This document shows, piece after piece, positions 1,975-53,530 of a stretch of DNA of 64,000 nucleotides. The stretch covers positions 1 through 64,000 of IMG/VR virus record IMGVR_UViG_3300035208_002098. The stretch is one strand, 5' to 3'. The notes below the pieces were generated by a model that saw only the letters and a list, made by a program, of their open reading frames with translations, made no database searches and had not been told where the DNA came from. The stretch is from a virus. Lineage: Duplodnaviria; Caudoviricetes. The translations under genes and the position numbers were made by a program. Every line of letters starts with the position of its first letter. The stretch's first letter is position 1.

Positions 1975-2001
1975 ATACCTTAATTTGAACCTATTTACAA
2001 C
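1975..2001 (-). repeat. Solitary CRISPR-repeat variant (27 nt)
   Basis: ATACCTTAATTTGAACCTATTTACAAC versus array repeat ATACCTTATTTTGAAACCCATTTACAAC. Confidence 0.8.
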
Positions 2002-2277
2002 AATCGTCAAATTAATAAAAAAGGACGGACTTTATCGGGTGAGCGAGGTTGTCCGTCCTTATTAATCGTCAAATTAATTAATCACTTAAAAGAGAAGTGT
2101 TTTGCTCACCCTTATTTTGAAGCTCTTTATCTATCGTTCCACCGATGTTGTGATTCTTTGACTTATATATTTTAAAAAACTATCTGTACGTGCCATAAAT
2201 ATTGCTTGCATATTTATCTTCCAGACCGTATTGTGTACGTAAGGGAATTTAACCATTAATACAGTTAGTTTGTTTTT

Positions 2278-2694
2278 TTATTCGTTGGGGTTGCTTGTTA
2301 ATCCACCCGTTGATATATACGTTATAAACCCACCACCTAATGTACCAACCTCAACATTGTTTTTATATATATGTGATTCAGCTAAAGAATATTCTAAATT
2401 ACTACCCATAGCACCTTTAATAGAACAATATACTTGCCAATAAGGTTTTTCAACTCGCCATTCATATGTAAATAATTGTGGTTCTTCGATAATGAAATTT
2501 TGAAGATGACCTAAAGAATCCCCCATATAAACAGTTGTTTTTTCGGTTACAACCAATTCGTATCTGAAAACATCGTACCCAGTTTCGATATCTGTGGTAT
2601 CAATTGTTGCACTTTTAAGAGTTGGTTCGTTTTTTTCACATGAAGTGAATACTGTTAATGCAATTACACTTAGTAATAAAATAATTTTTTTCAT
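2278..2694 (-). CDS. Putative lipoprotein
   Basis: MKK, hydrophobic stretch, then FTSC lipobox. Confidence 0.6.
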   Translation of the reverse strand: MKKIILLLSVIALTVFTSCEKNEPTLKSATIDTTDIETGYDVFRYELVVTEKTTVYMGDSLGHLQNFIIEEPQLFTYEWRVEKPYWQVYCSIKGAMGSNLEYSLAESHIYKNNVEVGTLGGGFITYISTGGLTSNPNE

Positions 2695-5600
2695 AGGATT
2701 TAATTTTTTATATTGTTATTATTTCAATTTGACTTTACAAAGATACAACATTAATTTGACATATGCAAATTATTTACAACATTTTTTCATATTCATATGA
2801 ATATTTTTTTTGTTCAGATATTGGTAACTCAGCAACACACATAAATATTTCTTCTTCATTTAATTTAAAACCGTCATTCAGTAATTCAATTACCGATGTA
2901 TAATGATATACGGTATCATATGCTTCTATTGGTGCTTTATCTTTTGTATTCCAAATAACAAAATCTTCTTTTGATATGTTTTTCAATTCAATATCATTAT
3001 ATTCGATACTGTTACCATCTAAAAACATATCTATTTCTTCTATTATAGTATATGGTGAATCTAACATACATTCAAGTTCACCAATTATTTTACCATTTGA
3101 GAATATTGTAACCTCATTTACTTCACGTTCATCATTTTTTGATGTAACATATTGTATTATTTTTGACGTTTCCATGACTTTAATTTTTTAAAGATGAATA
3201 TTTTAATTTGACTCTACAAAGATAAGTAAAATAATCTACACTACCAAATATAATGTAGATTATTTTTAAATTATTTTACCATACTCTTAACCCACCATAT
3301 GTTAATGGAATACCTCTATCACCAAATTGTATTACTTCACTGTCAACGTGTATCATATCACCACTTACAGTATCTAAATAATATTGGAAACATTCAGCTT
3401 TAGTACCTTGATTAGGATAAAACCCATATATCAAATGATTACCTTGTTCAAACGTTCTAAAGAATACAATACGTAAGGCTGTACGTCCTCTGCCGTATGT
3501 ATGCACATCACCAAGTTCTTTAAATTGTTTAAATGATATACTTTCATTATATTCAGTTAATAAACCAAGTGTACGAAAATCTTTACCTACACGAATAGTA
3601 GCTTCAACAAATAATTGTTCAGCTTTTGCCTTTTCGAAATATTCACCGTATATGATATATCCTTTGTCTTGTTTACAACAACGATAAAAAAGATTTTTTT
3701 TGAATTCGGTATTACCCTCTGTGATATTTTCATTCTCTTTGAGAATTACTATATTGGCTTCTCCAAACATAATTGTAAGATTTAAAATGAATACTTTAAT
3801 TTGACATTACAAAGATAAAACAAAAAAGTGTAACTACCAAATATAATTACACTTTTTTTAAATTATTTCTATATGGTATTATATAGTTATACCTCATCAG
3901 CTTCTAAGAATCCATATTCAAACATGATTTGTCTTTCAATTTTTGTCATACCACGTTCAACAAATGTACTGAATGAACCATTAACTTTTTTTATTTGTTT
4001 TGGATTTAAACCTAAGTATCTACCAATACCACGCATAGCACGTTTTGATGTTCTACCATAATAACAATCTAATTGTAACGAACCAAATTTTGGTACAAAA
4101 ACTTCCCCAACTGATTCGGTATTCCAATACTTTTTAAAATCATCATATGAATTTATTTTATCTTTTGGGAATAAATGTTCTTGGTATACACCGTCACCTT
4201 TTAGGTAATATCCGTACTCTTCCTTTACATTCTTTTCAGAATAGAAACGATATTTTTTACATACACCACATTCTTTTAATAAAGCGTTTTGCGTATCAAT
4301 ATTTCCTTGTGAAATATCTTTTAATTGAATTGTTGTAAATCCACCCATGACTGTAAGTTTTAAATGTTATTATTAATTTGACTCTGTAAAGATACAACAT
4401 TTATTTATAACTACCAAATGTTTTTACAATTATTTTAAATAAAAAATGGTGTACCTACATTACATAGGATACGCCATTACCGTTGTGGAACGAAGAAATA
4501 TTTTAATAAACTCTTGTTATTTTTGTTTGACTTGAATTGTATATACTATCACCTACATTTAAACCGTATAATGGTTCTTTAATAAACATTAGCCAATTAC
4601 TTTGAAGACCATATAATGGAGATGGGTTACCATTTCGAATAAACATTGGCTTACCATTCGTTGGTGCTTTAAACATTGCACGAGCTTTTAATACTGGTTC
4701 AGAATAGTTGGTAGTATCTGTTACCACATCTTTAACTTCTTTCACCACAGCATTTAATTTCATCTCAAGTTTTTCAAGCTGTGATAAGATATGCACCCAA
4801 TATTTATATTCATTCGGGAATATAATAACAGATTGATTCTTTTTATATGCTTTCATCTTTGCTTCATGAAATGCTATACCACCTTTGGCTTGCTCTAAAG
4901 CTCCTTTGATATCTGTAACCTCTATTGGATTACCATTAATATCTGAAATAAATACACCTACCATAACTATAATAATTTAGAATATTTAGATTTCAATTTT
5001 CTCATCATTTTTTGGTAGCGTTCTCTCGTAGCTTTTCCACTTGGTAATGAAACATCTATTTCGCAAATGATTTCATTTGTTGTAGTACATCTCAATCCAC
5101 ATGAAAATGGTGTACTTGCTAATCCTGTATAAAATAAAATGTAATTCATATTATATAATATTAGATTCAATAAAACCTTTTGTTTGTAAACTTGTAATGA
5201 AAATATTAAACTTTTCTTTATTAGTAAATGTTGCTATGTCGAAAAAATCACTACCATCATTATGTTTTGATATACCATTATGGTAGTTAACTAAATATTT
5301 AGCTTTACCAACATTATACATGATATTATATCGTTTGAATGTTATATCCATTCGTACACCACGCCTATTTTTTGACTGAATATAATTGCCGTCCATATCA
5401 GTTAAATAGTGATGTACTATTTTTGGGTATTTAGTCTTATCCAAACAAGAAAAGTCTATTATTGCACACATCATTCCATCACCCTCAGTTGATTCATATC
5501 CATTATAACCATTGATAAATGTTGCTTCACCTTTATATGGTTTACCATTGAATAAAAATTGTTTCGGGAATTGTTCACCATCATCGAAAGTTTTTATGTT

Positions 5601-7829
5601 CATAGTAGTAAGTTTTAAATGTTATTATTAATTTGACCTTACAAAGATACAACAAATATTTGTAACTACCAAATTTATTTATTGTTTTCTTTAATAAATT
5701 CTTCAATCCATTGATAATAAGAACTACCCATTACCTCTTCAAAATCACCATCGTATTCACGATAGTCAATGCATACTAATTCATTACAAGGTGATGCATT
5801 TAACCAATTGATACAATGAGTTATCATTTGTGGTGTTGGTTCCATACCACTAAAATCTTCGATATATGCTTTACCCTCAGCTAAATCTTCAAATAGATTT
5901 TCTAAATCAGTTTCGGGTGTTATTCTATTTTGATATAAAGTAACAAGCATATGTTCACCATTGAAATGTAAACAAGCTATACCACCATCTTCACAAATCA
6001 CTGTAACATCTTTGTCACTTGACTTTGCATTGATAACTAAAAATTTTATTGTTTTCATAATAGTAATTGTTTTAATTTGACTCTGTAAAGATAATACAAT
6101 TATTTGTAACTACCAAATTATTGTACAACTATTTTTCGTAAAAATAATCTACATTGTACATCACGATTAAATTCTTCACTTTTCCATGAATAATCATATT
6201 GTAAACAATCTTTTAATATAATATAGGTTGCCTCATCTGAGATAACAACATTATATCCTTTATTAACTTCAATAATATTCAATATCGTTTTAATAGCATT
6301 CTTTTTACTAGAAAAACACATTCTATCATATGTACGAAATTCATTGCCGTTATATGCCATTTGCATATTCTCTAATAAGTAAATGTATTTTTTTCTCATA
6401 ACAATAAAGTATTAATTAATTGACTTAGCAAAGATACGACAATTTTTTATCAATTCCAAATTTTATACCTAATTTTTTCTCTATTTTTGGTAAATGTTTT
6501 GGTGCATCAAATGAATCATTCCAACCGCCATTTTGTAATGATAATCGTAACGTTTCTTCTGTAATATTATTATGTCGTTTTACTGGGTCAACACCCAAAC
6601 CATTTGGTGTAGAATCTAATAGTTTACCTCTTACTTTTAACATTATATGAGAACAGCTAGTTGGTAATCCTTCATTATGTTTTATGAATTTAGTATTAAT
6701 TTCATAATAATGATATGTACTAGAATATAAATAAACAAAACTAATTCTATGCATATATGGATAACCTTGTTTTTTTAACCATAGATACATAGCTAAGGCA
6801 GAATATCCACATCCACCATAATTAATGTTTTTTATACTATCTAAATATTTTCTTATTTCTTCAAGACCTTTAAGAATATCATTCGCTTTTTTCATTACTG
6901 TAGATATATTAGATTAATAACTTAATTTGACAATACAAAGATAAACAAAATAATCCATACTACCAAATATAATATGGATTATTTTTATAAATTATATATT
7001 ACATAAACATTGTTCAACAACCAAATTCCATGTAGCTGTTGGGTCTTCTTTTTGTATAGTTGGATATAATCTAAGTACGTCTTGTATTTGTTCATCTGTA
7101 ACACCATAACCTACACTACTTGCAACTTGTTCAACGTCCTCAGCAGTTATAGGACATATATCCTCAGCTGGCTTAAGATTATCAGATAATATACAACATA
7201 TCGTATCAAATGAATTTTCAATCTCATCGTATGTTGTATTGAAAAAATCTTGTGCTTCATCACTATACCTAGTACAATCTTGTTCTGTATTATCTATTAT
7301 CGCACTATCACCAAATTTAGCCATAACTATTTTATCAGTTAGTTCTGTGATTAATTCAATCAATCTTGAATTGTCGATATACACTTTTTTCATAAGAGTA
7401 AGTTTTTAAATGAATATTATTAATTTGACTTTACAAAGATAATACATTTAAATCTAATATCCAAATGTTTTTACAATTATTTTTACATTAATTCAAAATA
7501 ATACATACTTGCACACCAACTCATTGCTTCATCTAATGTTACATACTCTATAACAATTTCATTCGTTTTTCTATCAATTACTTTATATTGTTTCATATTA
7601 TATAGTTTTAATTGTTTAACATATTACAAAGATACAATATATATTTTAAAAAGTCAGTAGACGATAATCAACATATCAAAAATAAATAAAAAAATATATT
7701 GAAAATAATACATAAATAATTTGGTAGTTACATTTATTTGTTGTATCTTTGTAGTGTAGTAATAAACAAAACACTACCAACTGCATACACACCATGTGCC
7801 GAAAGTCTAGACTCCACCCTACAATAAAA

Positions 7830-7845
7830 TGTTCCACGTGGAACA
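7830..7845. promoter_or_regulatory. parS-like 16-bp palindrome
   Basis: TGTTCCACGTGGAACA fits the bacterial parS consensus TGTTNCACGTGNAACA. Confidence 0.7.
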
Positions 7846-8610
7846 TAACGAAAAGGTATACATAACTTTTTACAGCTACATATACCAATCGGTTTATATC
7901 ACATGTTACTGTGTATATTCTTATGGGGTTAATTAAAACCCTAATTCTTTTTTAATATATGACACTGCTCTAATATCAAAACTACCAATATGCCAATCAG
8001 TTAATTTTGTTTTTGCAATACCTTTACTACCACAATAATTTTTACCATCTTTATAATTATATATTGTTGCAATAGTACCATCTTTAAATTCGATTTCCCA
8101 TTCAGCATCTGTCTTATACCCATCACCTTTACTTGGTTCACCAAATACTTTTTTAAGTTGTGCAAAACTACATTGAATACTACCTACTAATGACGTACCA
8201 CTAATATTAATTTCTTTTTGATTGTGAGTTGAAAATTCCATGACTTTAATTTTTTAAATGAATACTATTAATTTGACTCTGTAAAGATACAACAAATATT
8301 TTACAATTCCAAATAAAATATGAATTATTTTTAATATTCTAATAGTAAATTCCAAAATTTAGTATAATACTTTATTTGATTACGGTTCTCCATTGGATAT
8401 AACTTTAAATCTTTAATAATATTATATGTAACACTTAATAGTGTTTCAATTGGTAATACATTTAATTCTTTTCGTATGTGTGCATGAACAAACTTATTTG
8501 TTACTAGCATTAATTTCTCCATAATAATAAGGTTTTTAATTTGACATATACAAAGATACACTAAAATAACTACACTACCAAATTATAATGTAGCTATTTT
8601 TAATATATTT

Positions 8611-9282
8611 TTAATGCTCTACAAAACATACATTCTTTTTAGTTACACAATATGTGCAATTTAAACCACATCTAAATTTAATATCACTATCCTTTGTAGC
8701 TGGACATATAAATGTATTATATTGATTATGTAAACTCTGACAATATTCTATATTACCATAGTTTAAATTACCTTGTACATAACTTTCAATTAAATTGAAA
8801 TTATTTAAACACTCAATATAATTAAAATTTAATATACCTTTAACCTTAGTATAAGCATAAAACTTTTTTAATGGAAATAATTTTATTATCTCACACCAAA
8901 ATTCAATATATTCTTGACTAAAGAAGTCACCCGATGAGTGGATACGAATTACATTTTCTTTATTATTACTTAATTGTAATATTATTAATTCTTTTAATAA
9001 TTCTTTATTCGTTAAGAATAATTGTAAATTACAATCTCTAAATATACGTGTATCAGTATATTGTCTCTCAGCTTTTCGAGCATAACAAGTACTTTTACAA
9101 TCTTTACAATTTAAACAAGTTCTTACAGCTGGTAAATCAAATATTAATATATTATATAATTTTGAATTACCTTTTGCTAATCTATTACTTGTTATATAAT
9201 GATTAAAAACTAAAAGATTTCTACCTTTACTTGGTTTTGTGTAATCTACTCTATTGGTTTTAAAATCAATTTTTGATTCCAT
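8611..9282 (-). CDS. Phage Gp88-family protein
   Basis: FDLPA..TC..C..C...CYA and RIHSSGDFFS motifs, Cys-rich C-terminus. Confidence 0.7.
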   Translation of the reverse strand: MESKIDFKTNRVDYTKPSKGRNLLVFNHYITSNRLAKGNSKLYNILIFDLPAVRTCLNCKDCKSTCYARKAERQYTDTRIFRDCNLQLFLTNKELLKELIILQLSNNKENVIRIHSSGDFFSQEYIEFWCEIIKLFPLKKFYAYTKVKGILNFNYIECLNNFNLIESYVQGNLNYGNIEYCQSLHNQYNTFICPATKDSDIKFRCGLNCTYCVTKKNVCFVEH

Positions 9283-9951
9283 AATGATAATATTTTAAAT
9301 GAATAACTTAATTTGACTTTGCAAAGATATAACAATTAAATTTAATATCCAAATAAATAACCAACTTTTTTAATTTATTTTTTCTATACCATATTATATA
9401 GTATATATTATATACCTTTACTTACAGTTTATCACTTTTATATACCCTTATTTGAAAAACTATCACTTTTACCCCGATAGAAAATTCAATTTTACTTACA
9501 TATCGTAACTAAATCAATTATTTTTAATAAATAATGAAAATAATACCTAAATAATTTGGTAGTCTCATTTATTATACCTATCTTTGTATTGTACTTAAGA
9601 GAAACAGTACGGGCTGAGATAAGAAAATATCTTAGGAGAGTAGACTCCACCCTACCTTATACTTTTTAACCCCTAAAATAATTTAAAAATAATTGCTAAT
9701 ATATTTGGAATTGTAAAATATTTGTTGTATCTTTGCAATGGTTTATATTTCATTATCTGTCTTATCCTACGCCATAGGTGAAACAGAACGCTGTGTCCTT
9801 AACTCTCTGAGTAGTGTGGAGAAATCCTCATACCCATGATTGTTCTGGACATTTTTTTTATCCCACAGTGAAAAATTCTACATTCACTGACATGGGAGAA
9901 ATATGTCCATTAATCACTGAGAGTTTTTATTTTTTAAGGTACAATTAATAT

Positions 9952-9967
9952 TGTTCCACGTGGAACA
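9952..9967. promoter_or_regulatory. Second parS-like palindrome
   Basis: TGTTCCACGTGGAACA, identical to 7830-7845. Confidence 0.7.
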
Positions 9968-10076
9968 TAATATCCCGTTTTTTAGGGGTAAATAACACCT
10001 TTTTGTCTAAATTTTACCCAAAAATTTATAGAGAATTTACACGGAACATAACCTACAAACATCATTTTATATATTG

Positions 10077-10459: not shown

Positions 10460-10463
10460 TATA

Positions 10464-25278: not shown

Positions 25279-26697
25279 TTATAATTTTTCTATTATACCT
25301 TTTCTATTAGTTATTTCTTTACATACTTTTGCTGGTATAAGATTTTTGCCTATATAGATATATGTACCTTGGTTAGCTGTGCCACCACTAATAAGAATTT
25401 GGTTTTTATTAACACTTAAATGTTTACCAGACCAATTTTCAGTTATTTTAATTTTAGCACCTTTCGAGAAATTATAACGAGTTTTTCTAATACTATTATT
25501 ACCTTTGGTAACTTGTTTTCTGGTTCCATCTGGATTTAATATTGGTGTTCTATATTGTCTCAAATTTTCACCATTAGTCGATTTATTTCGTTTTGTTCTA
25601 CCAGAATTTAATACATATCCGGTTTTTATTTCACCATCTCTTGAATCAATATATTTAGCATCTCTAAATGTTTGTAATGCTCTATTGTTTCTACGTTCAC
25701 ACTTAAGATTAATAGTTTCAGATATTTTATCTTTGTCAGTACCACCAGCTATAATAAAAGCATCGTTATGGTGAGATTTCTCAATTTTATTATGAATTCT
25801 ATTAGCTTTAGTAATATAACCGTGTGTATTAGTAATTTCTATATTGGGATATAATTCTCGTAATTGATTAAGAATTCTAGTTTTAATAATATTCATAAAT
25901 GTAGAATCTTTAAAACCTTTAACTTTAAAACCGTTTTTTTGCCAATCTACTAAGAATCCTTTTTCATGGTTTTTAGCTGTATGACATTTTTCACAAAGTG
26001 TTATTAAATTACTTGGTTTATCTGAACCACCATTACGTCTATATATAATATGATGTACGTTTAATACCGGTTTATAGTTTTTATCGTCTTTATGTTTACA
26101 ATCTGGATTTTGACATTTATGGTCATCTCTATGGAGAATATATTCTCTAATATTCCAATATCCTAATTGTTCACCTTGTTGATATTCAACACTAGTAATT
26201 AATGGGTTATTAATTTTCTGAATATCAAAATTAGCCGTTTCTAATATAATTTTAGTTATTGGCAATCTAGTAATTAGTTTATCAATCTGTTTGATATGAG
26301 TATCAAATTTGTGTTGAGTTGATGGTGGTAACCAATTATCTTTTCTAGTTCTAAAATCGAATCGCTTTGCACGATATCTAAGTCTACTCCTTCGTAAGCT
26401 ACGACATCGTTGTTTATCAGATATCAATGATTTGATATCATTACGAAGTTCCAATTCACAACCAAACAATTCTTCTTTAATTGTTAAAGCTGAAATTCCA
26501 ATGAATGAATAACCGGTATCAATACCAAGTGTAATTGGTTGTATGAATTCTGGTGTATCATATAGTAATTTAATAGTAAATGGTTCATGCGAAAAAATTT
26601 CAGCTTTACCATCTTTAATTAATCGCCTAACTTTACCGTATTTTTCGGTTGGCATAAGCGGTTCTCCGTTTTTGTTAAGTACGAATACTTTTTTCAT
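25279..26697 (-). CDS. iscB: IscB RNA-guided endonuclease (PLMP, split RuvC, HNH), CRISPR-associated
   Basis: PLMP motif; RuvC-I GIDTG; Arg-rich bridge helix RSLRRSRLRYRAKRF; RuvC-II LETANFD; HNH VHHI...N..TLCEKCH; RuvC-III SHHNDA; 472 aa. Confidence 0.95.
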   Translation of the reverse strand: MKKVFVLNKNGEPLMPTEKYGKVRRLIKDGKAEIFSHEPFTIKLLYDTPEFIQPITLGIDTGYSFIGISALTIKEELFGCELELRNDIKSLISDKQRCRSLRRSRLRYRAKRFDFRTRKDNWLPPSTQHKFDTHIKQIDKLITRLPITKIILETANFDIQKINNPLITSVEYQQGEQLGYWNIREYILHRDDHKCQNPDCKHKDDKNYKPVLNVHHIIYRRNGGSDKPSNLITLCEKCHTAKNHEKGFLVDWQKNGFKVKGFKDSTFMNIIKTRILNQLRELYPNIEITNTHGYITKANRIHNKIEKSHHNDAFIIAGGTDKDKISETINLKCERRNNRALQTFRDAKYIDSRDGEIKTGYVLNSGRTKRNKSTNGENLRQYRTPILNPDGTRKQVTKGNNSIRKTRYNFSKGAKIKITENWSGKHLSVNKNQILISGGTANQGTYIYIGKNLIPAKVCKEITNRKGIIEKL

Positions 26698-26719: not shown

Positions 26720-26945
26720 AAATAAATCAGGGTCGAAACCCTGTGGTCCACTTTGACAATGTTATAAAAGCTTGTAATTTACCTTCCACTTCTCCGTATA
26801 GGGTTAGAGATGTTTAGTCGGGTAACACATTGCTACAGGCTAGTGGAGCACCGTAGGTGTGATGACTTAAATAACGTAGGTTTCCCTGAGTCATAATTGT
26901 AATCATCGAGAACTTCATTCTCAATTTTAAAAATAAGGTATGTTT
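26720..26945 (-). ncRNA. omegaRNA scaffold with a 5' anti-repeat (tracr-like)
   Basis: - strand contains CTACGTT, ACCTACGG...CTGTAG, TAAAC, ATAACATTG and a terminal CAGGGTTTCGACCCTG hairpin resembling IscB omegaRNAs. Its 5' part ATACCTTATTTT...TTACAAT is complementary to the repeat. Confidence 0.85.
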
Positions 26946-26956: not shown

Positions 26957-27519
26957 ATTCTAATGTTTTATATTTTTAATCCTATTTACAACGGAAAGAC
27001 CTGAGGCGAAAAAATTATGTGTGTTGTTTAATACCTTATTTTGAAACCCATTTACAACACTAACATGTCACAGTAAACAACTTCAACTGTTATTTAATAC
27101 CTTATTTTGAAACCCATTTACAACAAAGACAATAGATTATCAGCAGATTCATTTGTTGTTTAATACCTTATTTTGAAACCCATTTACAACACTAGTTTCT
27201 ATATTATAGAATATTATTCTGTTGTTTAATACCTTATTTTGAAACCCATTTACAACATCATAATGATATACAAAATATTATTGAAGGTTGTTTAATACCT
27301 TATTTTGAAACCCATTTACAACTCCATTGTTGTTTAGTTTAATTTTTTTATTGTTGTTTAATACCTTATTTGAATCCTATTTACAACTGGGATAGAACTT
27401 AATTTTTAAATTAAAACTTGTTTAATACCTTATTTTTGAAACCTATTTACAACTGATAAAGAATATGATAAGGAACTTATTAAATTGTTTAATACCTTAT
27501 TTTGAAACCCATTTACAAC
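26957..27519 (-). CRISPR. CRISPR array: 8 repeats plus 1 degenerate terminal repeat, 8 spacers of 29-30 nt
   Basis: + strand repeat GTTGTTTAATACCTTATTTTGAAACCCATTTACAAC at 27023, 27089, 27155, 27221, 27287, 27353, 27417 and 27484; degenerate copy ends at 26992; 66-nt period. Confidence 0.97.
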
Positions 27520-27571: not shown

Positions 27572-27582
27572 TGTCAATGAAC
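27572..27582 (-). promoter_or_regulatory. boxA-like antitermination element in the CRISPR leader
   Basis: GTTCATTGACA on - strand, about 15 nt downstream of the -7 box; identical copies at 32561 and 52901. Confidence 0.65.
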
Positions 27583-27597
27583 TTTTTTATTATACTG

Positions 27598-27629
27598 CAA
27601 AGATAAAGAAAAATAAAATACGATGCAAG
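27598..27629 (-). promoter_or_regulatory. Promoter driving array, omegaRNA and iscB
   Basis: TTG(-33)...TATCTTTG(-7) on - strand. Confidence 0.8.
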
Positions 27630-31137: not shown

Positions 31138-31621
31138 AATATATAATTTTTAGCACCTATAATACACAAATTTTATTAGAATATTGATGCATTATTAAGG
31201 TCTAGCTTGGTTCTCATTAGCATTGATAAATGCGTTTTAGTCTCTAGGTAATAACTCCCGTCTCTAAACCACTAATTCTTTGAACGAACACATTCCCTTA
31301 CCAAAGGGGAACAATACTTCTAGGATTTCTCCATAAGTTGGTTTATCTTAGGTCACACCTTAACAACCATGTTAACTTTTCCACTTACAACTTGTTAAAC
31401 CAAGTTTAGTATCTATTTATACTCTCAATGTTTAGCGAGTGAAGGTTTAAATGCTTAACGTCTATTGTACCTACAAGTAAGACAGTATTAAAATAAGACT
31501 CTTGGCGAGTGTTGCAACACCTGAGAAGGTGATTTAACGGTTATACCAGCAACAGAGCTTGACTATCCATTCAGTAAGTTATCTCGGTTATTCTTACTTA
31601 GAATCTTATTATGTTTTAGTG

Positions 31622-31781
31622 TGGGTAGGTCAGGAGTTGAACCTGAAGGTCTAACCTCGTGTACTTAGAAGTTCAAACAACCTATGACTTTTATTAATAC
31701 TTTGTACTACTTTGTACGCCTACGCCATAGTTTACTTATATTTGTTTATTATCAATGATGACACCATGTCAGTTCCCACCC
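31622..31781 (-). ncRNA. Oversized tRNA-like RNA A (~160 nt)
   Basis: Acceptor GGGTGGG/CCTACCC; T-arm TCAGG-TTCAACT-CCTGA; no canonical anticodon arm. Confidence 0.6.
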
Positions 31782-31798
31782 GAATGTTTTAAAAATAA

Positions 31799-32003
31799 TT
31801 GTGATGACAGGATTCGAACCTGTACAGAAACTGTTCAGTTAGACGATATAACCGTCATGCCTAACCTCTTTGAAGTGCTACATAATGTAAATTATAGGCC
31901 TAGACTTATTAACCAATTTACCCCTCTAATAGTTTATTTTCAAGGTTATCACTATCGTTTCCTCTCAAAGTAGATGCTTTTGGTCTAATTCAGCCACATC
32001 ACA
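31799..32003 (-). ncRNA. Oversized tRNA-like RNA B (~205 nt)
   Basis: Acceptor TGTGATG/CATCACA; D-stem GCT/AGC; T-arm ACAGG-TTCGAAT-CCTGT. Confidence 0.65.
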
Positions 32004-32047
32004 ATTATTATGGTTTTAAGAGCTGTTCAAACACATTTAACTGACAA

Positions 32048-32084
32048 GGTGTAAAAATACCTTAATTTGAAACCTATTTACAAC
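32048..32084 (-). repeat. Solitary CRISPR-repeat variant inside a stem-bounded ncRNA module
   Basis: ggtgtaaaaATACCTTAATTTGAAACCTATTTACAAC, flanked by complementary aagagctgt and acagcactctt. Confidence 0.85.
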
Positions 32085-32124
32085 TCACTAGACAGCACTC
32101 TTTAATTTTAAATTTTAAAAACAA

Positions 32125-32292
32125 TCATAGTAATAGGATTTTAACCTATAAAACAGTTTTCATTAGTTTTTATACTGGGACATTTACGCCAGAGACTTAA
32201 CTGAAAAGTCCGCTACTATTAGTTTCACCCTAGATTCATTTCAAATCTAAATTACACAATGGGATAGTGTCTTTACATTCCACCACACTATA
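32125..32292 (-). ncRNA. Oversized tRNA-like RNA C (~168 nt)
   Basis: TATAGTG-TG-GTGGAATGTAAAGACAC 5' half; degenerate T-arm ATAGG-TTAAAAT-CCTAT; 3' acceptor strand TACTATG. Confidence 0.55.
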
Positions 32293-32560
32293 ATTGTTTA
32301 TATTTTAAAATGATTGATAATCTGACTTCTTATGGCTACAAGATTGTATCAGCTTATGCTGTGTGATAGTATCAATCATTTATATTTTAAAATAGATTTT
32401 GAAAGATATAGGCTTAGTCTCTTCATCCTTATTCTGGCGAGATACTGTGAGAGTTGAGTATTTCTACTACATTACTAACCATCGTACTTATCTAACTCAA
32501 TAGACCTTTTCTTAATCTTCTCACGAAGATATTATCTATTTTATATTTTTTATTTTATTC

Positions 32561-32622
32561 TGTCAATGAACTTTGTACTTTTAACTACACTGCAAAGATA
32601 AAATTATTTTTAACATATGCAA
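32561..32622 (-). promoter_or_regulatory. Promoter plus boxA-like element heading ncRNA cluster 1
   Basis: TTG...TATCTTTG (-7 box at 32593-32600), then GTTCATTGACA at 32561-32571. Confidence 0.7.
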
Positions 32623-32639
32623 GTATTTTAGATAAAAAA

Positions 32640-44246: not shown

Positions 44247-45494
44247 TCAACTAGTGGTGTACTTTTTGTGCCTATCAATGTCGCTTTCCATGTGAACTAT
44301 ATCTATCTCTTTAGGTATAGATACTTCGGAAGTCAATACTCCTACTAACGTAGGCAGCTCGTTCCGATTTTTAAGTCTAAGTTCCTTAGACAAGTTTATT
44401 AATGCGAATGATTTGATATTGTTGCTTGCTAACAAGTCTCTATTGTGTGTTGTATGACAAGATTGACAAGTCCAAATTCTATCACTAAGTTTTAATTCTT
44501 TGTTTACCACACCACAAGTGCACATTCTACTACTTGGTTCAAATTGACCTATACGTAATTGATTACAACCATACCACTCAGATTTATAATCAAGCATTTC
44601 ATTGAATTTGCCAATAGCAATATCTGATAATGCTTGAGCAAGTTTATGATTCTTAATCATATTACTTGGTTTTAGTGTTTCAAGGCAAATAGTATCATAA
44701 TTTGTAGTTAAGTAATGACTTATTTTGTGCAAGAAATCCTCACGTTTATTAGCAACTTGTTCATGTAACAAAGCTATTCTTTCTTTTGTTCTTTTACCTT
44801 TAAATCTTGAATATTTACTTTGAGTGTATTTTAATTTACTCATAGCTTTTTTAAGATATTTAGGGTTTTCAATTTCTATCCCATTAGATAATACAGCAAA
44901 TGTTTTAATTCCTAAATCAATTCCAATAGCTTGGTTTTCACTAATTGGTTTCTTGGTAGGTATTTCTTCATTAACTTCTACTAATATAGAAATATAATAC
45001 TTCCCAGTAGGTGTTTTACTGATTGTAGATGTTTTTATAATTCCGTCAAAAACTCTATGTAATTTTACTCTTATCCCTTTTTTGAATTTAGGTATGTGTA
45101 TTTCTTCGTTACACAAGTCAATTTTTGTATGTTGTGGTATACTGAAAGATTGTGAATTATTGTGCTTTGATTTGAAGTTAGGGAATCCTTTTTTATCTCT
45201 AAAGAATTTAGTAAATGCGTTGTCTAAATTTTCTAAAGCTGATTGTAATGTTTGTGAATTAACTTCTTTCAACCAACAAGTGGCTTCATTATTTTTAAGA
45301 ATAGGTAAATTCTTTTGAATATCAAATCGACTAATAGTTTTCTTATCTAACTGATATGATTTAACTTTAAGGTCTAACCCATAATTGTAAATATAACGGC
45401 TACAACCAATGTGCATAGCAATTAGCTGCTTTTGTTCTTTGGTTGGATATAGACGATATTTATAAGCTTTATAAATCATAATGCAAATATACAA
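44247..45494 (-). CDS. tnpB: Full-length TnpB (IS200/IS605 OrfB); probable start MIYKAYKYRLYP at ~45479
   Basis: KAYKYRLYPT HTH, GIDLG RuvC-I, LETL RuvC-II, Zn finger and RDLLASNNI RuvC-III. Confidence 0.93.
   Translation of the reverse strand: MYICIMIYKAYKYRLYPTKEQKQLIAMHIGCSRYIYNYGLDLKVKSYQLDKKTISRFDIQKNLPILKNNEATCWLKEVNSQTLQSALENLDNAFTKFFRDKKGFPNFKSKHNNSQSFSIPQHTKIDLCNEEIHIPKFKKGIRVKLHRVFDGIIKTSTISKTPTGKYYISILVEVNEEIPTKKPISENQAIGIDLGIKTFAVLSNGIEIENPKYLKKAMSKLKYTQSKYSRFKGKRTKERIALLHEQVANKREDFLHKISHYLTTNYDTICLETLKPSNMIKNHKLAQALSDIAIGKFNEMLDYKSEWYGCNQLRIGQFEPSSRMCTCGVVNKELKLSDRIWTCQSCHTTHNRDLLASNNIKSFALINLSKELRLKNRNELPTLVGVLTSEVSIPKEIDIVHMESDIDRHKKYTTS
44272..44400 (-). ncRNA. TnpB reRNA/omegaRNA 3' region and guide
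   Basis: GAAG-TATCTAT...ATAGATA hairpin, then GTTCAC (44292-44297), resembling an IS200/IS605 right end; predicted guide ATGGAAAGCGACATTGATAG. Confidence 0.6.
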
Positions 45495-46041
45495 ATAATT
45501 TTTGTATAAACCAAGTTTTTTTAGTTAATAATTGTTTTATTCTTACATCATGATTAAAACAAAAACGATAACCATTTACCTCATTAAGTTCTATTAATTT
45601 AATATCAGCTACCTCATCTTTTTCAGAATTATTAGTGTTAAATTCATTAATCATTTGAAATAAAGTTTCTTTCGAAGTTATTATATCAAACTGATAATAT
45701 AATGTAACATTTTGTTTATTAGTTATTTTTTCAGTAATAACAAATTTTGGTTGTTCATTATATTTAAAATCATATTTATCAATGTCTAACCCAGTTTCTT
45801 CATATATTTCCCTTTTAGCTGCATTAGCACCAGATTCATCCCAATCTAAATACCCACAAGGTAAATTCCAATACCCTTGAAAATCTGGTGTACCGGTTCC
45901 ACGTTTATTAATCAATACATATGACTTATTTTTAACTTTCACATTAACTAAAGCAACAACAGCAACACTTCTTGATATCCAATATTCTATACCATCTGAT
46001 ATGATACATTTATTTGGTGTGTTATTAAATTTCTTTCCCAT
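45469..46041 (-). CDS. NUDIX hydrolase
   Basis: G.....E....AA.RE..EE.G Nudix box (CGYLDWDESGANAAKREIYEETG). Confidence 0.9.
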   Translation of the reverse strand: MGKKFNNTPNKCIISDGIEYWISRSVAVVALVNVKVKNKSYVLINKRGTGTPDFQGYWNLPCGYLDWDESGANAAKREIYEETGLDIDKYDFKYNEQPKFVITEKITNKQNVTLYYQFDIITSKETLFQMINEFNTNNSEKDEVADIKLIELNEVNGYRFCFNHDVRIKQLLTKKTWFIQKLFVYLHYDL

Positions 46042-46386
46042 TATTGATTTAATTTAACTAATAATTCATTATATTCATCTTCAGTACCAACAAAATGAAT
46101 GTAAAACTCATTTGTTTTATCGGTATGGTCTGAAATGTCATGTTCTATCCAACCTTGCTGTTTCATTAATAGCGTTAATGCTCTCACACTTTCTAACCTT
46201 AATTTATCGTTTGTGTAATATTCAATCATTAATTGGGCGTTATCAATACCATATTGTATATAATCATCGTTTTTAAATATCGGTGAATTTTTAGTGGTTG
46301 ATTCATGTAATTTACCTAATTGGTAAGAAAAGAAATCACGTAATTCAGATTTTTCTAATCCAATATGTACTTCATTATCTTTCATA

Positions 46387-46992
46387 TTATTCAGTTTTAT
46401 TTGTTTCAAAAATTATTGATGTATTACACGTGATTACTTGGCTTTTAATATCTTTTTCAGTACAAATAACATACGATGCGTATTTTATTAAATCATTGTG
46501 TGATGATTGATGTGAACTAATTGCATCGAATCGTGCTTGATTATCACCATCACGTTTCATAACTCTATTATACCTAATTAATAAATCATTCTTTTCATCA
46601 TATGATGCTATAACTGATATTACTTTATCAAATCGTTTATCTAAACCAACCTCTAACCCTTGTGCACATTCAACTATAATATACGGACTTGTTTGTTGAG
46701 AATACCAATAGTTTAATTCACCAAAAATTAATTTACCCATGAAATGTTGTATGGTATCCCTCTTATATTTATTTTTGAAGAATATATCTAAATATTTATG
46801 GTTTAATTTATAATTATCGGTAAAACAATCATGTCCAAGTACATCACGATACATATTTTGAACTGATTCATTAGTTAGTAATAAATTTCTATTAACGGTA
46901 TCAAAGTTAAATATAGGTATACCAAGCTCTTCAAATATTTTTGAAACTGTTGTTTTACCAGCACCAATACCACCAACTAATAATACTTTCAT
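46387..46992 (-). CDS. coaE: Dephospho-CoA kinase
   Basis: GGIGAGKTTV P-loop, LGIPIF..D, and R...RD...Q lid motif. Confidence 0.8.
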   Translation of the reverse strand: MKVLLVGGIGAGKTTVSKIFEELGIPIFNFDTVNRNLLLTNESVQNMYRDVLGHDCFTDNYKLNHKYLDIFFKNKYKRDTIQHFMGKLIFGELNYWYSQQTSPYIIVECAQGLEVGLDKRFDKVISVIASYDEKNDLLIRYNRVMKRDGDNQARFDAISSHQSSHNDLIKYASYVICTEKDIKSQVITCNTSIIFETNKTE

Positions 46993-49185
46993 TTATTGTA
47001 AACTTTTCATGTTTTCTCGTTCAACACCTCTACGAAATTGTTTGTCTTTTTCACAAGTGAATTTTTCGTAAACTTTTATTACGGCACCATCTAATGTTAC
47101 CACTGCTTTGTTTTCTTCGAATTTAGTTTTATACTTTTTCATATTAAATATTTTTTACAAAGTTACTTTATTTATTTCTATTTTTCAAGGTATTAATAAA
47201 ATATAATTTAATTTACTATTAAAATCCCATTTTCAACTGTAAATTGATTATATATTAATATAACATTATTAAACTCTATCATAGCAAAATCATTCACATA
47301 ACTTTCTTCACTAATATCATATCGTGTTACGATTATTTTTAAAGGATTTACAGCTCTTTCATCATCTGATATAAGTTGAATACATTTATATTTATATTGG
47401 CGTTCTAACGCTTTATTTTTAAATAAATAATTTATTGCGTTTATAACACTTTGTATTCTAATATCATTACATCTAACGTTAATACATTCATCATTAAATT
47501 TATTTAAGTTATAAATACTAGACATTATATTTATAGGAACCAAAAAATATCCGGGTATATCAATTTCTTCGTACTGTCGTTCACGTAAATTACCTTGTGG
47601 CATCATAACAAATTGGTTACGATTATTCAGTTCATTAAAATGTTTATTAACGATAGCTTGATAATGGGGATAAGAAATAGTAACAGTAAAAATTGGTATA
47701 TATTCCACAAAGCAATTTATTATAACCCATTACCTTTAACTAACTTAAAGATAACACCACATTTATTACATGAGCGTGAATCACTAGTTTTATAACTATG
47801 ATATCCGGGTCCTAAAACACCATTATTTTCATAAGTACTATTATCAGATATATTTTTAGATTTACAAACCGGACATTTAATAACTAATTTTGGTTCTTCT
47901 TTTTTAATACGATTATCAATTTTTAAATTATCTGGGTTAGAAAAATATTCATTAATAGTCGTTGCTGCCGATACTGGGTCATAATCTTTTGTATAAAAGC
48001 TTTTTTCTATTAATTCTAGTGGAATAAGTTTATCTAAAGCACTTGGTATTTTACCAATAAATGGTTTACCAATAGTACGTTCAATCGGTTCTATTTTTTT
48101 CTTTGACATAATTAATATCGATAATTGTTATTATTAAAATTATTTGTGTCCATATCTGCATCAAACTCATTAGTAACAGCCCAATAGAATATACCTACAC
48201 AAGCTAAGAATACTAATATATAGACTATTACAGCATTCCCACGCATTTTAAATATTCGTGATACTGCATCAATTACTGTATACCCATCACGCATTACTTT
48301 AGAACAAATTAATACGTTACCATTACCTTTTTTCGGATATTGTTTTGGTGATTCATTTGTTATGTTTGGCATCCAAAGAATTAAATCCATGTTCATTTCA
48401 TGTGGTAAACTATCTAATGTACCACCATTAATCACTTCAGTTATTTCTAATTGATTTGCTATTTTAGTAACTACTGACGAACTCTTTGGTTCATCACCAA
48501 AATTACCACCTACAATTAAAGTTTGTATATTTTTATTTATTACCATTGTATTGAGAATGAGATTAAACCATGTATTTTTTTGAATGAAAAGAATTTCTCT
48601 TTTGGTTTACTAAATTGTTTATGATAGTTAATTAGACGTAACCACATTTGGAAATCTTCTTTTTCTTTAACCGTTAATTTACTATTTAATGTTTCAAAGA
48701 TATCTCTAGTTATTTTAGAATCATTTGAAACCGTAATTAATTGTGATGCGTTAAATTGTTCCATTATCATATTTTTTAAATAATTCTTTTAATTTAATAT
48801 TGGTATTTGACTGACATCTATCAAACATGTCATCAATAGAACTACTAATTTCTCGTTTAAATTCAATTATTTGTCCATAATACACAGTGTATGTAAAAGA
48901 TAATGACAATTTAAATGAATATTCATCATAGATTAAACCACCGCTTACTTCGCTAAAATAAAATATAATACCATTGGATTGTAATCTAATAAGATATTCC
49001 TTTATTCCGTGTAATAAATACTGTGTGTATTTATTTGGGTCCAAAATTCTATTTATAAAATTAATATTAACTTCATCAATAATCTTATCAATACCAGTAT
49101 CAACTTTATTATATTCATCTAAGTTTGAATTACTTATGTAACACCTACCTTGATTACTTATTTTAATTGCTAAATCAATCATGTT

Positions 49186-49629
49186 TTATTTATGTTTTAA
49201 TAATTCTGGGTTTTGATGAATATTACCAACCACAATAACATATGATTTAAGTGGAACTAATTTATATTCTCTTATTTGTTTACCATGATTATATTTAGAA
49301 CCATTTCTAGTACAAAAACAACCATTATAGAATATAACCTCACAATTAATTGTAGTACCGTTATTACCATCTTTACAAGCAACTATATCACCATCATAAA
49401 TTTTAGTACCTTTACGGTCATCAACACCAGTATACTGACCTAATGTTTGATAAAGTATATCAGTAAATTGGTTAAATTGGTCACCACAAGGGTCTGACAT
49501 TGTTGGGTTTGTTTGTATAAACTCTACAATTTGATGACAACATTTAGCTGCGTTATAATGTGGGTAACCATAATGCCACGCACCATCATTTAAACCCCGA
49601 TAGTCAATTTCTCTTTTCATTATTTCCAA
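49186..49629 (-). CDS. YopX-family phage protein
   Basis: REI.YRG, GQYTG..D..G..IY.GDI and VVGNIHQNPELL motifs. Confidence 0.85.
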   Translation of the reverse strand: MEIMKREIDYRGLNDGAWHYGYPHYNAAKCCHQIVEFIQTNPTMSDPCGDQFNQFTDILYQTLGQYTGVDDRKGTKIYDGDIVACKDGNNGTTINCEVIFYNGCFCTRNGSKYNHGKQIREYKLVPLKSYVIVVGNIHQNPELLKHK

Positions 49630-51438
49630 GAATATTTAATTTTAAAATCCCAATCACCGATAAAACGTTTTCTAAATACTTGTTTAGCTTTTTGTATTAC
49701 ATCTTCTGGTGTGTCAAATCTATATGTTGGTTCATCAACATCATAATCTTCAAATCTTTTAGCATGTAATGTTTTATCTGATTGTGTAATCATTCTATTA
49801 AGTTCAATAGTCCAATTTACCCAACCAATTGGAAAATCACCATCCGCAAATGTATTCCATGTTTTACCATCAGTACCTTCAAATTCTACATCAGCACCCT
49901 CAAAGGTAAGTTTACCATAATAATGGATTGCATCACCAGATATACCACGATATGAAGTTATGTTAAGAGTAACTTTTCTTTTTGTGTTTTTACGTACACT
50001 TTCTAAACTAGCTGTGTATACTCTTTCACCTTTAGTAAATTGGTCACCATGTTTTACTGAATGGTAATCAATTGTATCAGGAGCATTTTCTTTTGAATCG
50101 TCACCAAATATAACTCTTTTCTTAAAATAGATAATAATCTCATCATCACCATCTAATATTTCAACATTATCAAAATCTTTCTCTTCCTCAACTTCTTTGA
50201 TAACTTCAACTGATTTTTGATTTTCATCATATAATAATTCACCGGTTATTTTATTAACCCAATAATAATTAAAATAATCGTCTTCATCTGGTTCATCGTG
50301 TTCTTTAACGATATATTCAGTGCCATCTTCATCCCAAACAGTTACTACAATAGCGTTTTGATTTCTATTTTTAATAGCATCGATTAAATCAATACCAGTA
50401 ATAACACTTTCAACGCCTCTGTGATGTAAGTACATTGCGTATCGACATTTATATGATTTATTAGACATAATATATTATTTTAAATTAAACATATGCAAAG
50501 ATAAATAAAATAAATGATAATACCAAATATATTATGATTTATTTTTTAATTTACGTTTTTGGCCATGATATTCAATACCTTTAAAACTATTTTTATCAAA
50601 ACCATGTGATTCAATTTTAATTAAATCAGTGATTTCTTCTTTTTTTAATTTTATTTCTTCATCGGTTAGGAAAGAATATTGTTTTTCATATCGAGCCCAT
50701 TTTTTATATCGTCTGTCATTTAATTGTTTACGGTGTCTATCTTCTCGTTTAAGACGATGATATTCTTTATCGTTAACATCATCAAAATGTTTCCAAAAAC
50801 CACTTACAACTATTCTAGCCCAACGTCTAGGATTATCACGCCAAGTTAAATTGTTTTTAATTTCACCAGTTTCATTATGATGATAACCTTCAGCATAATC
50901 ATATGATTCGAATGTTACACCATTACTAGTATCTTTTTTACGTTTACGATATCTTTTTTTATATTCAGGATTTATTTGGATGTTACCTTTATCATCAACA
51001 ATGTACTCGCTTGGATAGCTAGAATATCCCCAGCTTTGGTGTTGGTTAAAGTTATCTAGAAATTCATATTGTTCATAAACTTTAACTTGATTACAATAAT
51101 AACTAAAGGCTTTATCAAATGATTTACCTAAGAATTTTTTAATAACTCTTTCTGCTTTAACCCAAGGGTAATCACTTTTTTCACTTCTATAATGTGGATG
51201 GTCAAAACGTGGTAAATCCCACATATCACCATATTTTCTAGTAATATAAGCTTTTCTACCTTCTTTGAATGGAAGAGTTTCTAATATTTCAATATGTTGT
51301 TCCATGTAATACATTATTATAAATAGATAAAAAAAATGGTAGCTTACCTACCAGCACGAGTCTGAAACGCTCCGAGTGTCTACCCAGCCACACCGGTCTC
51401 CAACCAGTTGTCTATCAGGTACTTAATTGTGGCAATCG

Positions 51439-51570
51439 TGGGGGAACAGGCATCGAACCTGTATTTACACTTTGGACTGTCGTGCAATTATTACGCATTT
51501 CGTGGCACCATTCTGTCCTAGACTCGGCTTATCCATACGTTATAGTGTCTACCAATTCCACCATCTCCCC
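51439..51570 (-). ncRNA. Oversized tRNA-like RNA D (~132 nt)
   Basis: GGGGAGATGGTGGAATTGGTAGACAC (Leu-like D-arm) ... ACAGGTTCGATGCCTGTTCCCCCA. Confidence 0.65.
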
Positions 51571-51675
51571 AAATGTAGTCTTTTCCTACAGTCAACGTTA
51601 ACCTATTGCAGTCTAAACGTATGTGAGTTCCTCCGATTTGAAAGGTGTCGCTTAACTCATTCGTGCATATCCTTG

Positions 51676-51803
51676 TAGGATGAATAGGATTCGAACCTAT
51701 AATGTGTTGCCCGTAAGACGCTTGGTTGCGGAGCAGTGCTATTTCACAACGCTTACTCTATTACTCTCTCAGGACTCGTGTATACCAATTCCACCACCAC
51801 CCT
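51676..51803 (-). ncRNA. Oversized tRNA-like RNA E (~128 nt)
   Basis: AGGGTGGTGGTGGAATTGGTATACAC ... ATAGGTTCGAATCCTATTCATCCTA. Confidence 0.65.
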
Positions 51804-52026
51804 ATTTTGCTTTACATTGAGATTACATATAAAGTCTAGTTATTATCGGTTTTCTTTCTTTCAATAAACCTGCCACACTTCTGTTGTTTAAAAAAGTCAA
51901 ACTACTTGGAGCCTCTGTTACCTAGCTTTTATTCCCAACGAAACTGGCGTTTAAGGATGTCCAGTTCAATACCCTACCCATTGTTATAAGTCTTGGGTTA
52001 AAGACCACTTGTACCTCTTACAATTG

Positions 52027-52097
52027 TGCTGCGAATAGGACTCGAACCTACATCCTGAAGTATTTCCCTCCCTGTTCTACCATTAAACTACCGCATC
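52027..52097 (-). tRNA. Normal-length tRNA-like gene with non-canonical anticodon loop (pseudo-tRNA)
   Basis: GATGCGG-TA-GTTTAATGGTAGAAC...GTAGGTTCGAGTCCTAT-TCGCAGC-A; loop GGAAATA lacks U33. Confidence 0.55.
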
Positions 52098-52252
52098 ATT
52101 GTTGACTCGACTTTAGCCCAGTCTTTTATATAAGCATATAGGTTATATATCTTATATGGCTACCTAGAATTATGTCTAGCTCACATCTAGGGGACTCAAC
52201 CTTTACACTTGAATCAGAGGTGGTTGGTACTATTCATTATGTGTTAGAGACA

Positions 52253-52294
52253 GTTGTTTTAAAAATATATCTTAATTTGAAATCTATTTACAAC
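52253..52294 (-). repeat. Solitary 42-nt CRISPR-repeat variant
   Basis: GTTGTTTTAAAAATATATCTTAATTTGAAATCTATTTACAAC on + strand. Confidence 0.8.
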
Positions 52295-52508
52295 CCATTC
52301 CACCACATCACCATTTAATCTTTAAAAATACTACATCTGGTTAAGTGTTCGCCTCCACTGTTCACCAATTATTGAGTGCCTTACTGTAAAAGTAGGTGAC
52401 CCATTTTACACCCCCGATATCGGTAAACGACCTCCTAATCAGGTTAATATAGTATAAAGTTTTAAAAAGAATCATTATGTTTAGGTTTTTGTTACTATTA
52501 ATTAGAGT

Positions 52509-52550
52509 GTTGTTTTCAAAATATACCTTAATTTCAAACCTATTTACAAC
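52509..52550 (-). repeat. Solitary 42-nt CRISPR-repeat variant
   Basis: GTTGTTTTCAAAATATACCTTAATTTCAAACCTATTTACAAC on + strand. Confidence 0.85.
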
Positions 52551-52900
52551 GATACTCCCCTTTCGGCATGTAACTCGCTCAACCATGCATAAGATTCTCT
52601 ATATTTTAAAAACCATTAGTCTTGTGATGAATAAACTTCAATGTGCGGTGGGTAGCAAACTCGGCTTCTTTTCAGATAACTTATACTGTTTATATTGTCA
52701 CTAACATGAATCACAACTTCATATATAATAAGTAGTTCTTGCATACTATTTGGTTGGTATGTAGGCTGAAAGCCAGCTTTAGCAACGCTCTTATTATTGT
52801 TAGCTCCAATCTAATGGTTAATATTTAAAAGGGGTTACTCAATGGAACACTATATATTTGTCATAGCTCTTATCACTGTATTAACTTCACCCCAATTTTA

Positions 52901-52911
52901 TGTCAATGAAC
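52901..52911 (-). promoter_or_regulatory. boxA-like element within ncRNA cluster 2
   Basis: GTTCATTGACA on - strand. Confidence 0.6.
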
Positions 52912-52917
52912 TAATTG

Positions 52918-53050
52918 TGCCCGTAGGAGGACTCGAACCTCCATGGTTTTGTTTTATATCATCACGTTAATGACTTTATTATAAACCGTATCCCACGTTC
53001 AAGGCTTGCAATCCCATCCTGTGTAGCTTTACCAATTTGCTTATACGGGC
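52918..53050 (-). ncRNA. Oversized tRNA-like RNA G (~133 nt)
   Basis: Perfect acceptor GCCCGTA/TACGGGC; D-arm AGC-AAATTGGTAAA-GCT; T-arm GGAGG-TTCGAGT-CCTCC. Confidence 0.7.
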
Positions 53051-53060
53051 ATTTATTTTG

Positions 53061-53194
53061 ATGGTCTATTAGGATTCGAACCTAAGTAAATGCTACCATC
53101 AGAGCTTATCCCTACTCTCACATTTACTTTCTACTCTCCATTCCCAGTTGATAGTTCGTGCACAGACAAATCAACCTTCTGTAGATATACACCC
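53061..53194 (-). ncRNA. Oversized tRNA-like RNA H (~134 nt, degenerate)
   Basis: T-arm TTAGG-TTCGAAT-CCTAA; imperfect acceptor GGGTGTA/TAGACCA. Confidence 0.45.
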
Positions 53195-53195
53195 A

Positions 53196-53441
53196 TTATT
53201 TAATAGGTAGTTTATTTAAATATTCTATTAAACCACCAACGTTTTTAATTGCTTCAGCATCTTCATCAGAAATATTTACTTTAAGCTCCTTTTCTATACG
53301 CATTACTAATTCTATACCATCAATACTATCGAAACCTAAATCATTATAGAAATCGGCATTATCAACAATATCTTCTAATTCAAGGCCACTATAATCAAGT
53401 ATAATACCCCTAACTTTTTTTCCTAATTCTTCTTTATTCAT
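53196..53441 (-). CDS. acpP: Acyl carrier protein
   Basis: DLGFDSID phosphopantetheine-attachment motif; 81 aa, acidic. Confidence 0.9.
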   Translation of the reverse strand: MNKEELGKKVRGIILDYSGLELEDIVDNADFYNDLGFDSIDGIELVMRIEKELKVNISDEDAEAIKNVGGLIEYLNKLPIK

Positions 53442-53492
53442 ATTAAATTTACATTCTTCAATTAACTCATCACATATTTTTGTCGCTTTAAA

Positions 53493-53530
53493 TTTTCAAA
53501 ATATACCTTAATTTGAAATCTCTTTACAAC
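53493..53530 (-). repeat. Solitary CRISPR-repeat variant just downstream of a promoter
   Basis: TTTTCAAAATATACCTTAATTTGAAATCTCTTTACAAC; -7 box at 53553-53560. Confidence 0.8.

Follow-up and report, generated by a model that had tools for sequence, protein, structure and literature searches.

The 64,000-nt window analysed here, which is the first 64 kb of virus record IMGVR_UViG_3300035208_002098, contains five solitary CRISPR repeats (S1 to S5) that, judged from their sequence, belong to the lineage of the phage's own CRISPR-IscB locus. All five are located in predicted non-coding RNA units and lie in the transcribed orientation. The reading that we tentatively favour, without holding it to be probable, is that these units act as stand-alone CRISPR RNAs (crRNAs) against the repeat-less alleles of sibling phages. 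It builds on what was observed, namely the identity, lineage and context of the copies, their predicted pairing with the anti-repeat and one empty allele.

Solitary repeats and their RNA units

The record comprises 248,412 bp (27.7% GC) and is about 70% complete. Phage replication and tail genes, about 50 tRNAs and promoter boxes of Bacteroidota type are present, and the virus is a jumbo phage encoding IscB. The minus strand holds 81% of the open reading frame cover. An ENA assembly of the same phage (ERZ27247350, contigs k141_18716 and k141_1965785) runs beyond the left end of the record, and about 95 kb of the phage genome were estimated to lie outside it.

A fuzzy scan of the whole record, allowing up to 5 edits against the 28-nt repeat core, recovered just the five solitary copies and the eight repeats of the array; five order-4 Markov shuffles yielded no match. 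The copies had been placed by a first-pass annotation on the minus strand, in non-coding stretches, and all were confirmed there: S1 (1975..2001), S2 (32048..32084), S3 (52253..52294), S4 (52509..52550) and S5 (53493..53530). Additional copies may exist, since the record is incomplete. No solitary copy has another repeat within 100 bp, the closest pair being S3 and S4, 214 nt apart.

No other copy came to light when viral, metagenome and genome collections were scanned for exact pattern matches. Matches of a 20-mer to 43 viral sequences were judged to be due to chance, as was a single look-alike in an Ignavibacteriae metagenome-assembled genome, which overlaps the start of a kinase gene. Among distant relatives in IMG/VR, repeats were not found above background, and the IscB matches were ordinary HEARO loci.

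All five copies start at the first base of the repeat and are identical at positions 1-8, and their 3' ends differ copy by copy. S3 and S4 are the two full 42-nt units with both terminal motifs that the annotation had described; they differ from each other at 4/42 positions, none within positions 1-8. The shorter copies measure about 27 nt (S1, core only, with one T fewer), 37 nt (S2) and 38 nt (S5). The shared variant reported as absent from the array proved to be T at position 20, found in 5/5 copies, the array copies all having A; it adds one mismatch in the pairing with the local anti-repeat. A further one, G25A, is found in S3, and in S4 the position-16 mismatch becomes a G-U pair. With orientation unconstrained, the common orientation of the copies, also noticed at first pass, would come about by chance once in 32.

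S2 is located between two tRNA-like genes of a non-coding RNA operon (operon 1, 31138-32639, minus strand), whose promoter box and boxA-like motif lie at 32561..32600. Its 18-nt 5' flank (32085..32102) follows an AU-rich linker. A second operon (51315-53560) holds S3, S4 and S5 together with tRNA-like genes carrying long inserts. The 18-nt flank of S3 (52295..52312) is the 5' start of a tRNA-like gene, and S4 lies inside a stem-closed unit (52468-52598). S5 stands at the head of operon 2, upstream of an acyl-carrier-protein gene; its promoter box (53553-53560, in the region 53531..53560) ends 22 nt before the repeat, and a leader of 15-18 nt was predicted by applying the start-site offset of Bacteroidota promoters. 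Both operons and the array unit have the promoter type, the boxA-like motif and the AU linkers in common.

The stretches 31600-32300 and 51438-53190 contain about ten tRNA-like genes, which have D- and T-arms and, in the anticodon arm, inserts of 45-120 nt; one of them is 82.5% conserved in the sister phage locus L045 (SRR15035646). The acyl carrier protein gene (53196-53441) lies between S5 and the non-coding RNA operon.

Between the repeat and the closest likely RNA 5' end, the predicted distance is 15 nt for S1, 18 nt for S2 and S3, 15-18 nt for S5 and 48 nt for S4. The four flanks of 15-18 nt, predicted from promoter, linker and tRNA-like starts, have the guide length of one characterised CRISPR-IscB: in DelIscB, guides of 16-18 nt work and about 15 nt are read (PMC12660989). 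No convincing target of flanks or spacers was found in the phage's own genome, GenBank phages, plasmids, 401 genomes of the Bacteroidota phylum or the loci of relatives. Two ideas on the flanks were discarded: the S3 flank has no exact 15-mer in five Bacteroidota genomes that would make it a guide to host tRNA genes, and locking of the flanks in closing stems did not differ from shuffles (p 0.12-0.59), accessibility being similar to that of array spacers.

S1 has a hairpin on one side and a terminator on the other: its 15-nt flank (2002..2016, minus strand) comes after the hairpin and a T-run, and the terminator hairpin (about 1946-1974) follows the repeat. A perfect duplicate of all 15 nt of the flank occurs 62 bp upstream (2064-2078), and the flank is antisense, over its first 11 nt, to the leader shared by a class of the phage's early promoters (predicted -10.7 kcal/mol, at least 10 promoters). 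These features could speak for a regulatory use, in which S1 damps early promoters as a short guide or antisense RNA, or in which the repeats mark omegaRNA-directed RNase III cut sites in the non-coding RNA operons. In Cas9 systems, short guides cause repression rather than cleavage. The promoter match, however, falls at the end distal to the target-adjacent motif (TAM), with mismatches in the seed; the operons already have linkers and tRNA-like ends for processing; and the case is drawn from S1. The S1 flank can fold back on the repeat and may be a mere fold-back arm, since the same 9-mer occurs in the repeat. We regard regulation as very improbable. Near-identical early promoters, at least 10 and one per small gene, occupy 63-9380, and their leader 9-mer is the core of the solitary repeats.

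The IscB locus and the lineage of the repeat

The home locus lies on the minus strand, with array, omegaRNA scaffold and anti-repeat all upstream of iscB in one genome. The iscB gene (25279..26697, 472 aa) encodes a protein that is intact by its PLMP, RRXRR, RuvC (D60, E153, H309/D312) and HNH motifs. It is preceded by a HEARO-like omegaRNA scaffold (26741..26941; 57 bits, E 5e-10, under the gathering score of 83) and by an anti-repeat with an inserted hairpin (26896..26942), which pairs repeat positions 1-7 and 13-28. The array (26982..27519) consists of eight 36-nt repeats at a period of about 66 nt (36+30) and a degenerate ninth, and its unit has a Bacteroidota-type -7 promoter box and a boxA-like motif (27572..27605). 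Cas1, TnpA and RNase III were not found in the record, so that the phage would depend on its host for spacers and processing. A TnpB (IS605 OrfB) gene is present at 44247-45494 in this record without TnpA. No second anti-repeat was found in this record, which is about 70% complete.

Repeats and an anti-repeat accompany all of the six nearest IscBs for which the DNA was read, and these six belong to a single group of 11 members (SH-like approximate likelihood ratio test, SH-aLRT, 99; quick tree with midpoint root). Every phage has a repeat of its own, to which its anti-repeat corresponds. Loci L052, L053, L216, L045 and L046-L051 form a phage-like IscB clade with 36-nt repeats and hairpin-interrupted anti-repeats upstream of iscB.

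In L052, L053 and L216 a promoter box was found 11-16 nt ahead of the anti-repeat. With their anti-repeats separately promoted, as these boxes indicate, the three sister loci have a natural dual-RNA layout. L053 also carries a second mini-array of two repeats (L053:2889-2990) downstream of iscB, overlapping the iscB 3' end; this remote mini-array could pair only in trans. The iscB reading frame of L053 continues into a mini-array repeat.

Over 28 nt, the solitary copies match the phage's own array or that of L045 at 24-26 positions and the best of 86 Bacteroidota type II-C repeats at 21-23. The first-pass annotation had noted a likeness to Bacteroidota II-C repeats, and this likeness is real: a loose pattern retrieves their 46-47 nt arrays, and the first 22 nt at the 5' end match them at 14-20 positions. 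Its second option had been decoys, in the sense of RNA anti-CRISPRs (rAcrs) mimicking the repeat and sequestering the type II-C trans-activating crRNA (tracrRNA) or Cas9 of the host. In favour of host-Cas9 decoys, besides this likeness, promoter boxes indicate a Bacteroidota host, the copies sit in operons of unexplained small RNAs, and phage solitary repeats are known as Racrs (PMC10651486).

The sequence likeness fails as support for such decoys at positions 6 and 9-12. G6 and a block 9-12 ending in GC occur in 86/86 host arrays, whereas position 6 of the solitary copies is A and their block 9-12 is rich in purines, as in phage IscB repeats; the phage anti-repeat carries the pairing partner of A6. 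No array of the solitary-repeat type was found by exact search in 185,579 species genomes, nor with 2 mismatches in the 401 genomes of the Bacteroidota phylum. With 21-23/28 for the best host repeat against 24-26/28 for phage IscB, the comparison does not indicate mimicry of a host repeat among the 86 compared. Many Bacteroidota II-C repeats (L060-L139) carry a TAnnTTTG box 19 nt past their first four bases, which the tails of S2 to S5 merely approximate.

The position-20 variant is the state in the L045 array, is matched by the L045 anti-repeat, and comes with an IscB 74% identical to that of the present phage. With the variant present in the array and anti-repeat of a sister phage, it can be accounted for without host mimicry. 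The same core occurs in L052, L053, L216 and host repeats, and T at position 20 is therefore the older state. By parsimony, the phage's own array and its anti-repeat would have changed together afterwards.

Duplexes of the copies with the phage's own anti-repeat were predicted at -4.7 to -12.7 kcal/mol, S3 being the weakest, and those of the array repeats at -11.3, with the same shape. In single-guide DelIscB the duplex is removable from position 20 onward (PMC12660989). Pairing of the solitary copies with the anti-repeat in trans is plausible, because sister anti-repeats have their own promoter and one locus has a remote mini-array. Extra pairing of the S3 to S5 tails was discounted as that of a palindromic operon linker.

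With three real host tracrRNAs, predicted duplexes reached -9 to -18 kcal/mol, about half of the -28 of a cognate pair, and were no better than those of the phage's own array. The comparison proposed at first pass returned likeness to II-C repeats in sequence and, for these three tracrRNAs, no pairing of cognate strength. The units are moreover not crRNA-tracrRNA chimeras, unlike the sole validated Cas9 rAcr (bioRxiv 10.64898/2026.06.03.729762). On pairing and architecture, host-Cas9 decoys fit least and are hardly to be expected.

With the L045 anti-repeat the copies gave -10.1 to -15.9 kcal/mol, every copy pairing equally well or better than with its own, and the phage's own array paired poorly (-6.3). 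The copies might thus be decoys against a rival phage IscB: as crRNA mimics that do not target, they would sequester the omegaRNA that L045-type competitors bring to a co-infection. Ancestry accounts for the same fit, and the gain comes partly from an AU-rich, self-complementary tail identical to the operon linker. The single spacer seen in L045 is unmatched in the present genome, agreeing at best at 20/30 positions. We consider this explanation improbable.

Sibling alleles and possible functions

In run X3, a single 538-nt contig matched 52551-52612 (1 difference) and 52293-52491 (4 differences) and skipped 52492-52550, a 59-nt segment (minus strand) made up of S4 and 17 nt. The joint is unambiguous, and the gap ends exactly at the first base of the S4 repeat. 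The contig match ends at 52293, two bases into S3, and near-identical flanks without the repeat were found in this run for both S3 and S4. The repeat-less RNA unit still folds to a closed stem.

In run X4, S3 and S5 are present with their flanks, and a weak joint (30-nt side, intervening letters not known) sets a repeat start behind 53107. Positions 52338-52671 have no cover in X4, and this region was not used as evidence. The homologue of the tRNA-like gene at 52911-53058 comes immediately after iscB in L045. Because of the X3 and X4 joints and this position of iscB, the repeat 5' end is, as read from these alignments, a recurrent junction, and the whole cassette has at one time occupied the operon of S3 to S5.

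Runs X1 and X2 and loci L044, L058, L059 and L197 represent the same phage and were not counted as independent. In L197, which is from the ENA assembly, the stretch 8280-9734 is inverted and flanked by inverted promoter-like repeats, a possible invertible element, and at 66-127 about 4.9 kb of additional DNA lie between two promoter repeats. A 20-nt deletion (50930-50949) in X1 contigs, also in L058 and L059, cuts a 257-aa gene to 119 aa and may be a strain variant or an assembly difference.

If the units act as stand-alone crRNAs, transcription or processing would leave a 15-18 nt flank 5' of the repeat, the repeat would pair in trans with the tracr-like omegaRNA and load on IscB, and the flank would serve as guide. 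The flank is older sequence common to siblings without the repeat, so that its perfect target would be the sibling's empty allele; the filled allele would be protected because the repeat occupies the TAM place. In co-infection the sibling would be cut and the repeat-bearing allele favoured, by exclusion or homing. Cleavage of empty donor sites by IscB with flank-derived guides has been described (PMC10055086). The birth of a unit would most simply be a junction event, exact at the repeat 5' end and ragged at the 3' end, by repair against array DNA or by half-site integration through host Cas1-Cas2.

Of the two options named at first pass, trans guides gained support from the flank lengths, the IscB-type anti-repeat pairing, the promoted anti-repeats, the remote mini-array and the repeat-less allele, and decoys of host Cas9 did not; both functions are putative. 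A more specific proposal, possible although on the unlikely side, is that a 27-59 bp repeat placed behind an existing RNA 5' end constitutes a minimal RNA-guided homing element against siblings' repeat-less alleles. Such an element would make new guides without spacer acquisition and would borrow nuclease and tracr-like RNA in trans.

Several observations weigh against stand-alone crRNAs. The position-20 mismatch to the phage's own anti-repeat was kept in 5/5 copies, and four copies pair 2.5-6.6 kcal/mol more weakly than array repeats. The S4 flank, at 48 nt, is outside guide length; S1, S2 and S5 have no target found, save S1's own duplicate; and unit boundaries were set by eye. Cleavage of the empty allele presumes a fitting TAM, which is only putative here. 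The empty allele is one sibling contig at a depth of 3.3, and a loss on the sibling's side would explain it as well as a gain in the present phage. A relative 75-85% identical lacks S5 and the non-coding RNA operon at that place. Substitutions among the copies are few, and selection is not significant.

The copies might instead be remnants that are inert or nearly so. On this reading, which like that of rival-IscB decoys was not raised at first pass, they would be scars left at former sites of the array-omegaRNA-iscB cassette or by recombination with array DNA, and would be tolerated in non-coding RNA operons only. This rival has to be taken seriously, because the cassette has changed place and, when the array changed, the copies stayed as they were; all five hold the older position-20 state. 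The iscB arrangement of L045 puts the cassette in the operon of S3 to S5, the 3' ends are ragged, S5 resembles a promoter with a first repeat, and S4 is dispensable in a sibling. Remnants would not be expected to share the transcribed orientation and an intact 5' end in all five cases and guide-length flanks in four, nor to occur, as S1 and S2 do, at a distance from both known cassette sites. S3 and S4 have diverged, yet their first eight positions are untouched. On balance we find this explanation unlikely.

Were the stand-alone crRNA reading true, the phage would program an OMEGA nuclease (obligate mobile element-guided activity) by moving a repeat, not by acquiring spacers. It would tie IscB transposon homing to dual-RNA CRISPR and offer a testable route for the origin of array and tracrRNA toward Cas9. 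It would also caution against classing phage solitary repeats as anti-CRISPR RNAs by default. The phage IscB clade with its apparently separately promoted anti-repeats would constitute a set of natural dual-RNA compact nucleases.

Comparison with known systems

Solitary repeats, CRISPR-IscB and flank-guided homing are each already known. The literature, as far as it was covered, yielded no account of a phage IscB served by dispersed solitary repeats. CRISPR-associated IscB was reportedly described by Altae-Tran et al. in 2021.

The present locus resembles CRISPR-associated IscB, including DelIscB (PMC12660989), in having a PLMP-RuvC-HNH IscB downstream of an array, an anti-repeat and a HEARO-like scaffold, and in its predicted short guides. 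It differs in being phage-borne, in belonging to a clade with Bacteroidota promoters and in having repeat copies 5-27 kb from the locus; the sister loci, by their predicted promoters, would transcribe the anti-repeat separately, like a true tracrRNA.

Solitary repeat units or Racrs (PMC10651486; PMC11656645) are likewise single intergenic viral repeats, some of them just after a promoter. In the present case the closest repeat is the phage's own IscB repeat and not that of the host, and effector and anti-repeat to match are encoded by the virus itself. rAcrIIA1 (bioRxiv 10.64898/2026.06.03.729762) is likewise a small RNA of a phage in which one part resembles a type II repeat, but it is a full crRNA-tracrRNA chimera, and the units described here have no tracr part 3' of the repeat; the sole tracr-like motif (2076) lies upstream of S1, within a hairpin arm.

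Viral CRISPR mini-arrays for inter-virus competition (PMC11656645) also use minimal CRISPR parts against related viruses, which is putative for the present phage. Here there is no repeat-spacer-repeat, the repeats are not identical to those of a host, and the effector would be the phage IscB.

IscB/TnpB homing at donor joints and the omegaRNAs borne by palindrome-associated transposable elements (PATEs; PMC10055086) share with the putative mechanism a flank-derived guide, an empty-allele target and a nuclease supplied in trans. Unlike PATEs, the units have no common 3' end, no full omegaRNA and no TnpA found with them; paired hairpin ends at left and right, as in such elements, were not seen, and no stable fold of the units alone and no Y1 transposase in the record, about 70% complete, were detected. 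Each unit measures 27-59 bp, and its scaffold would be provided in trans.

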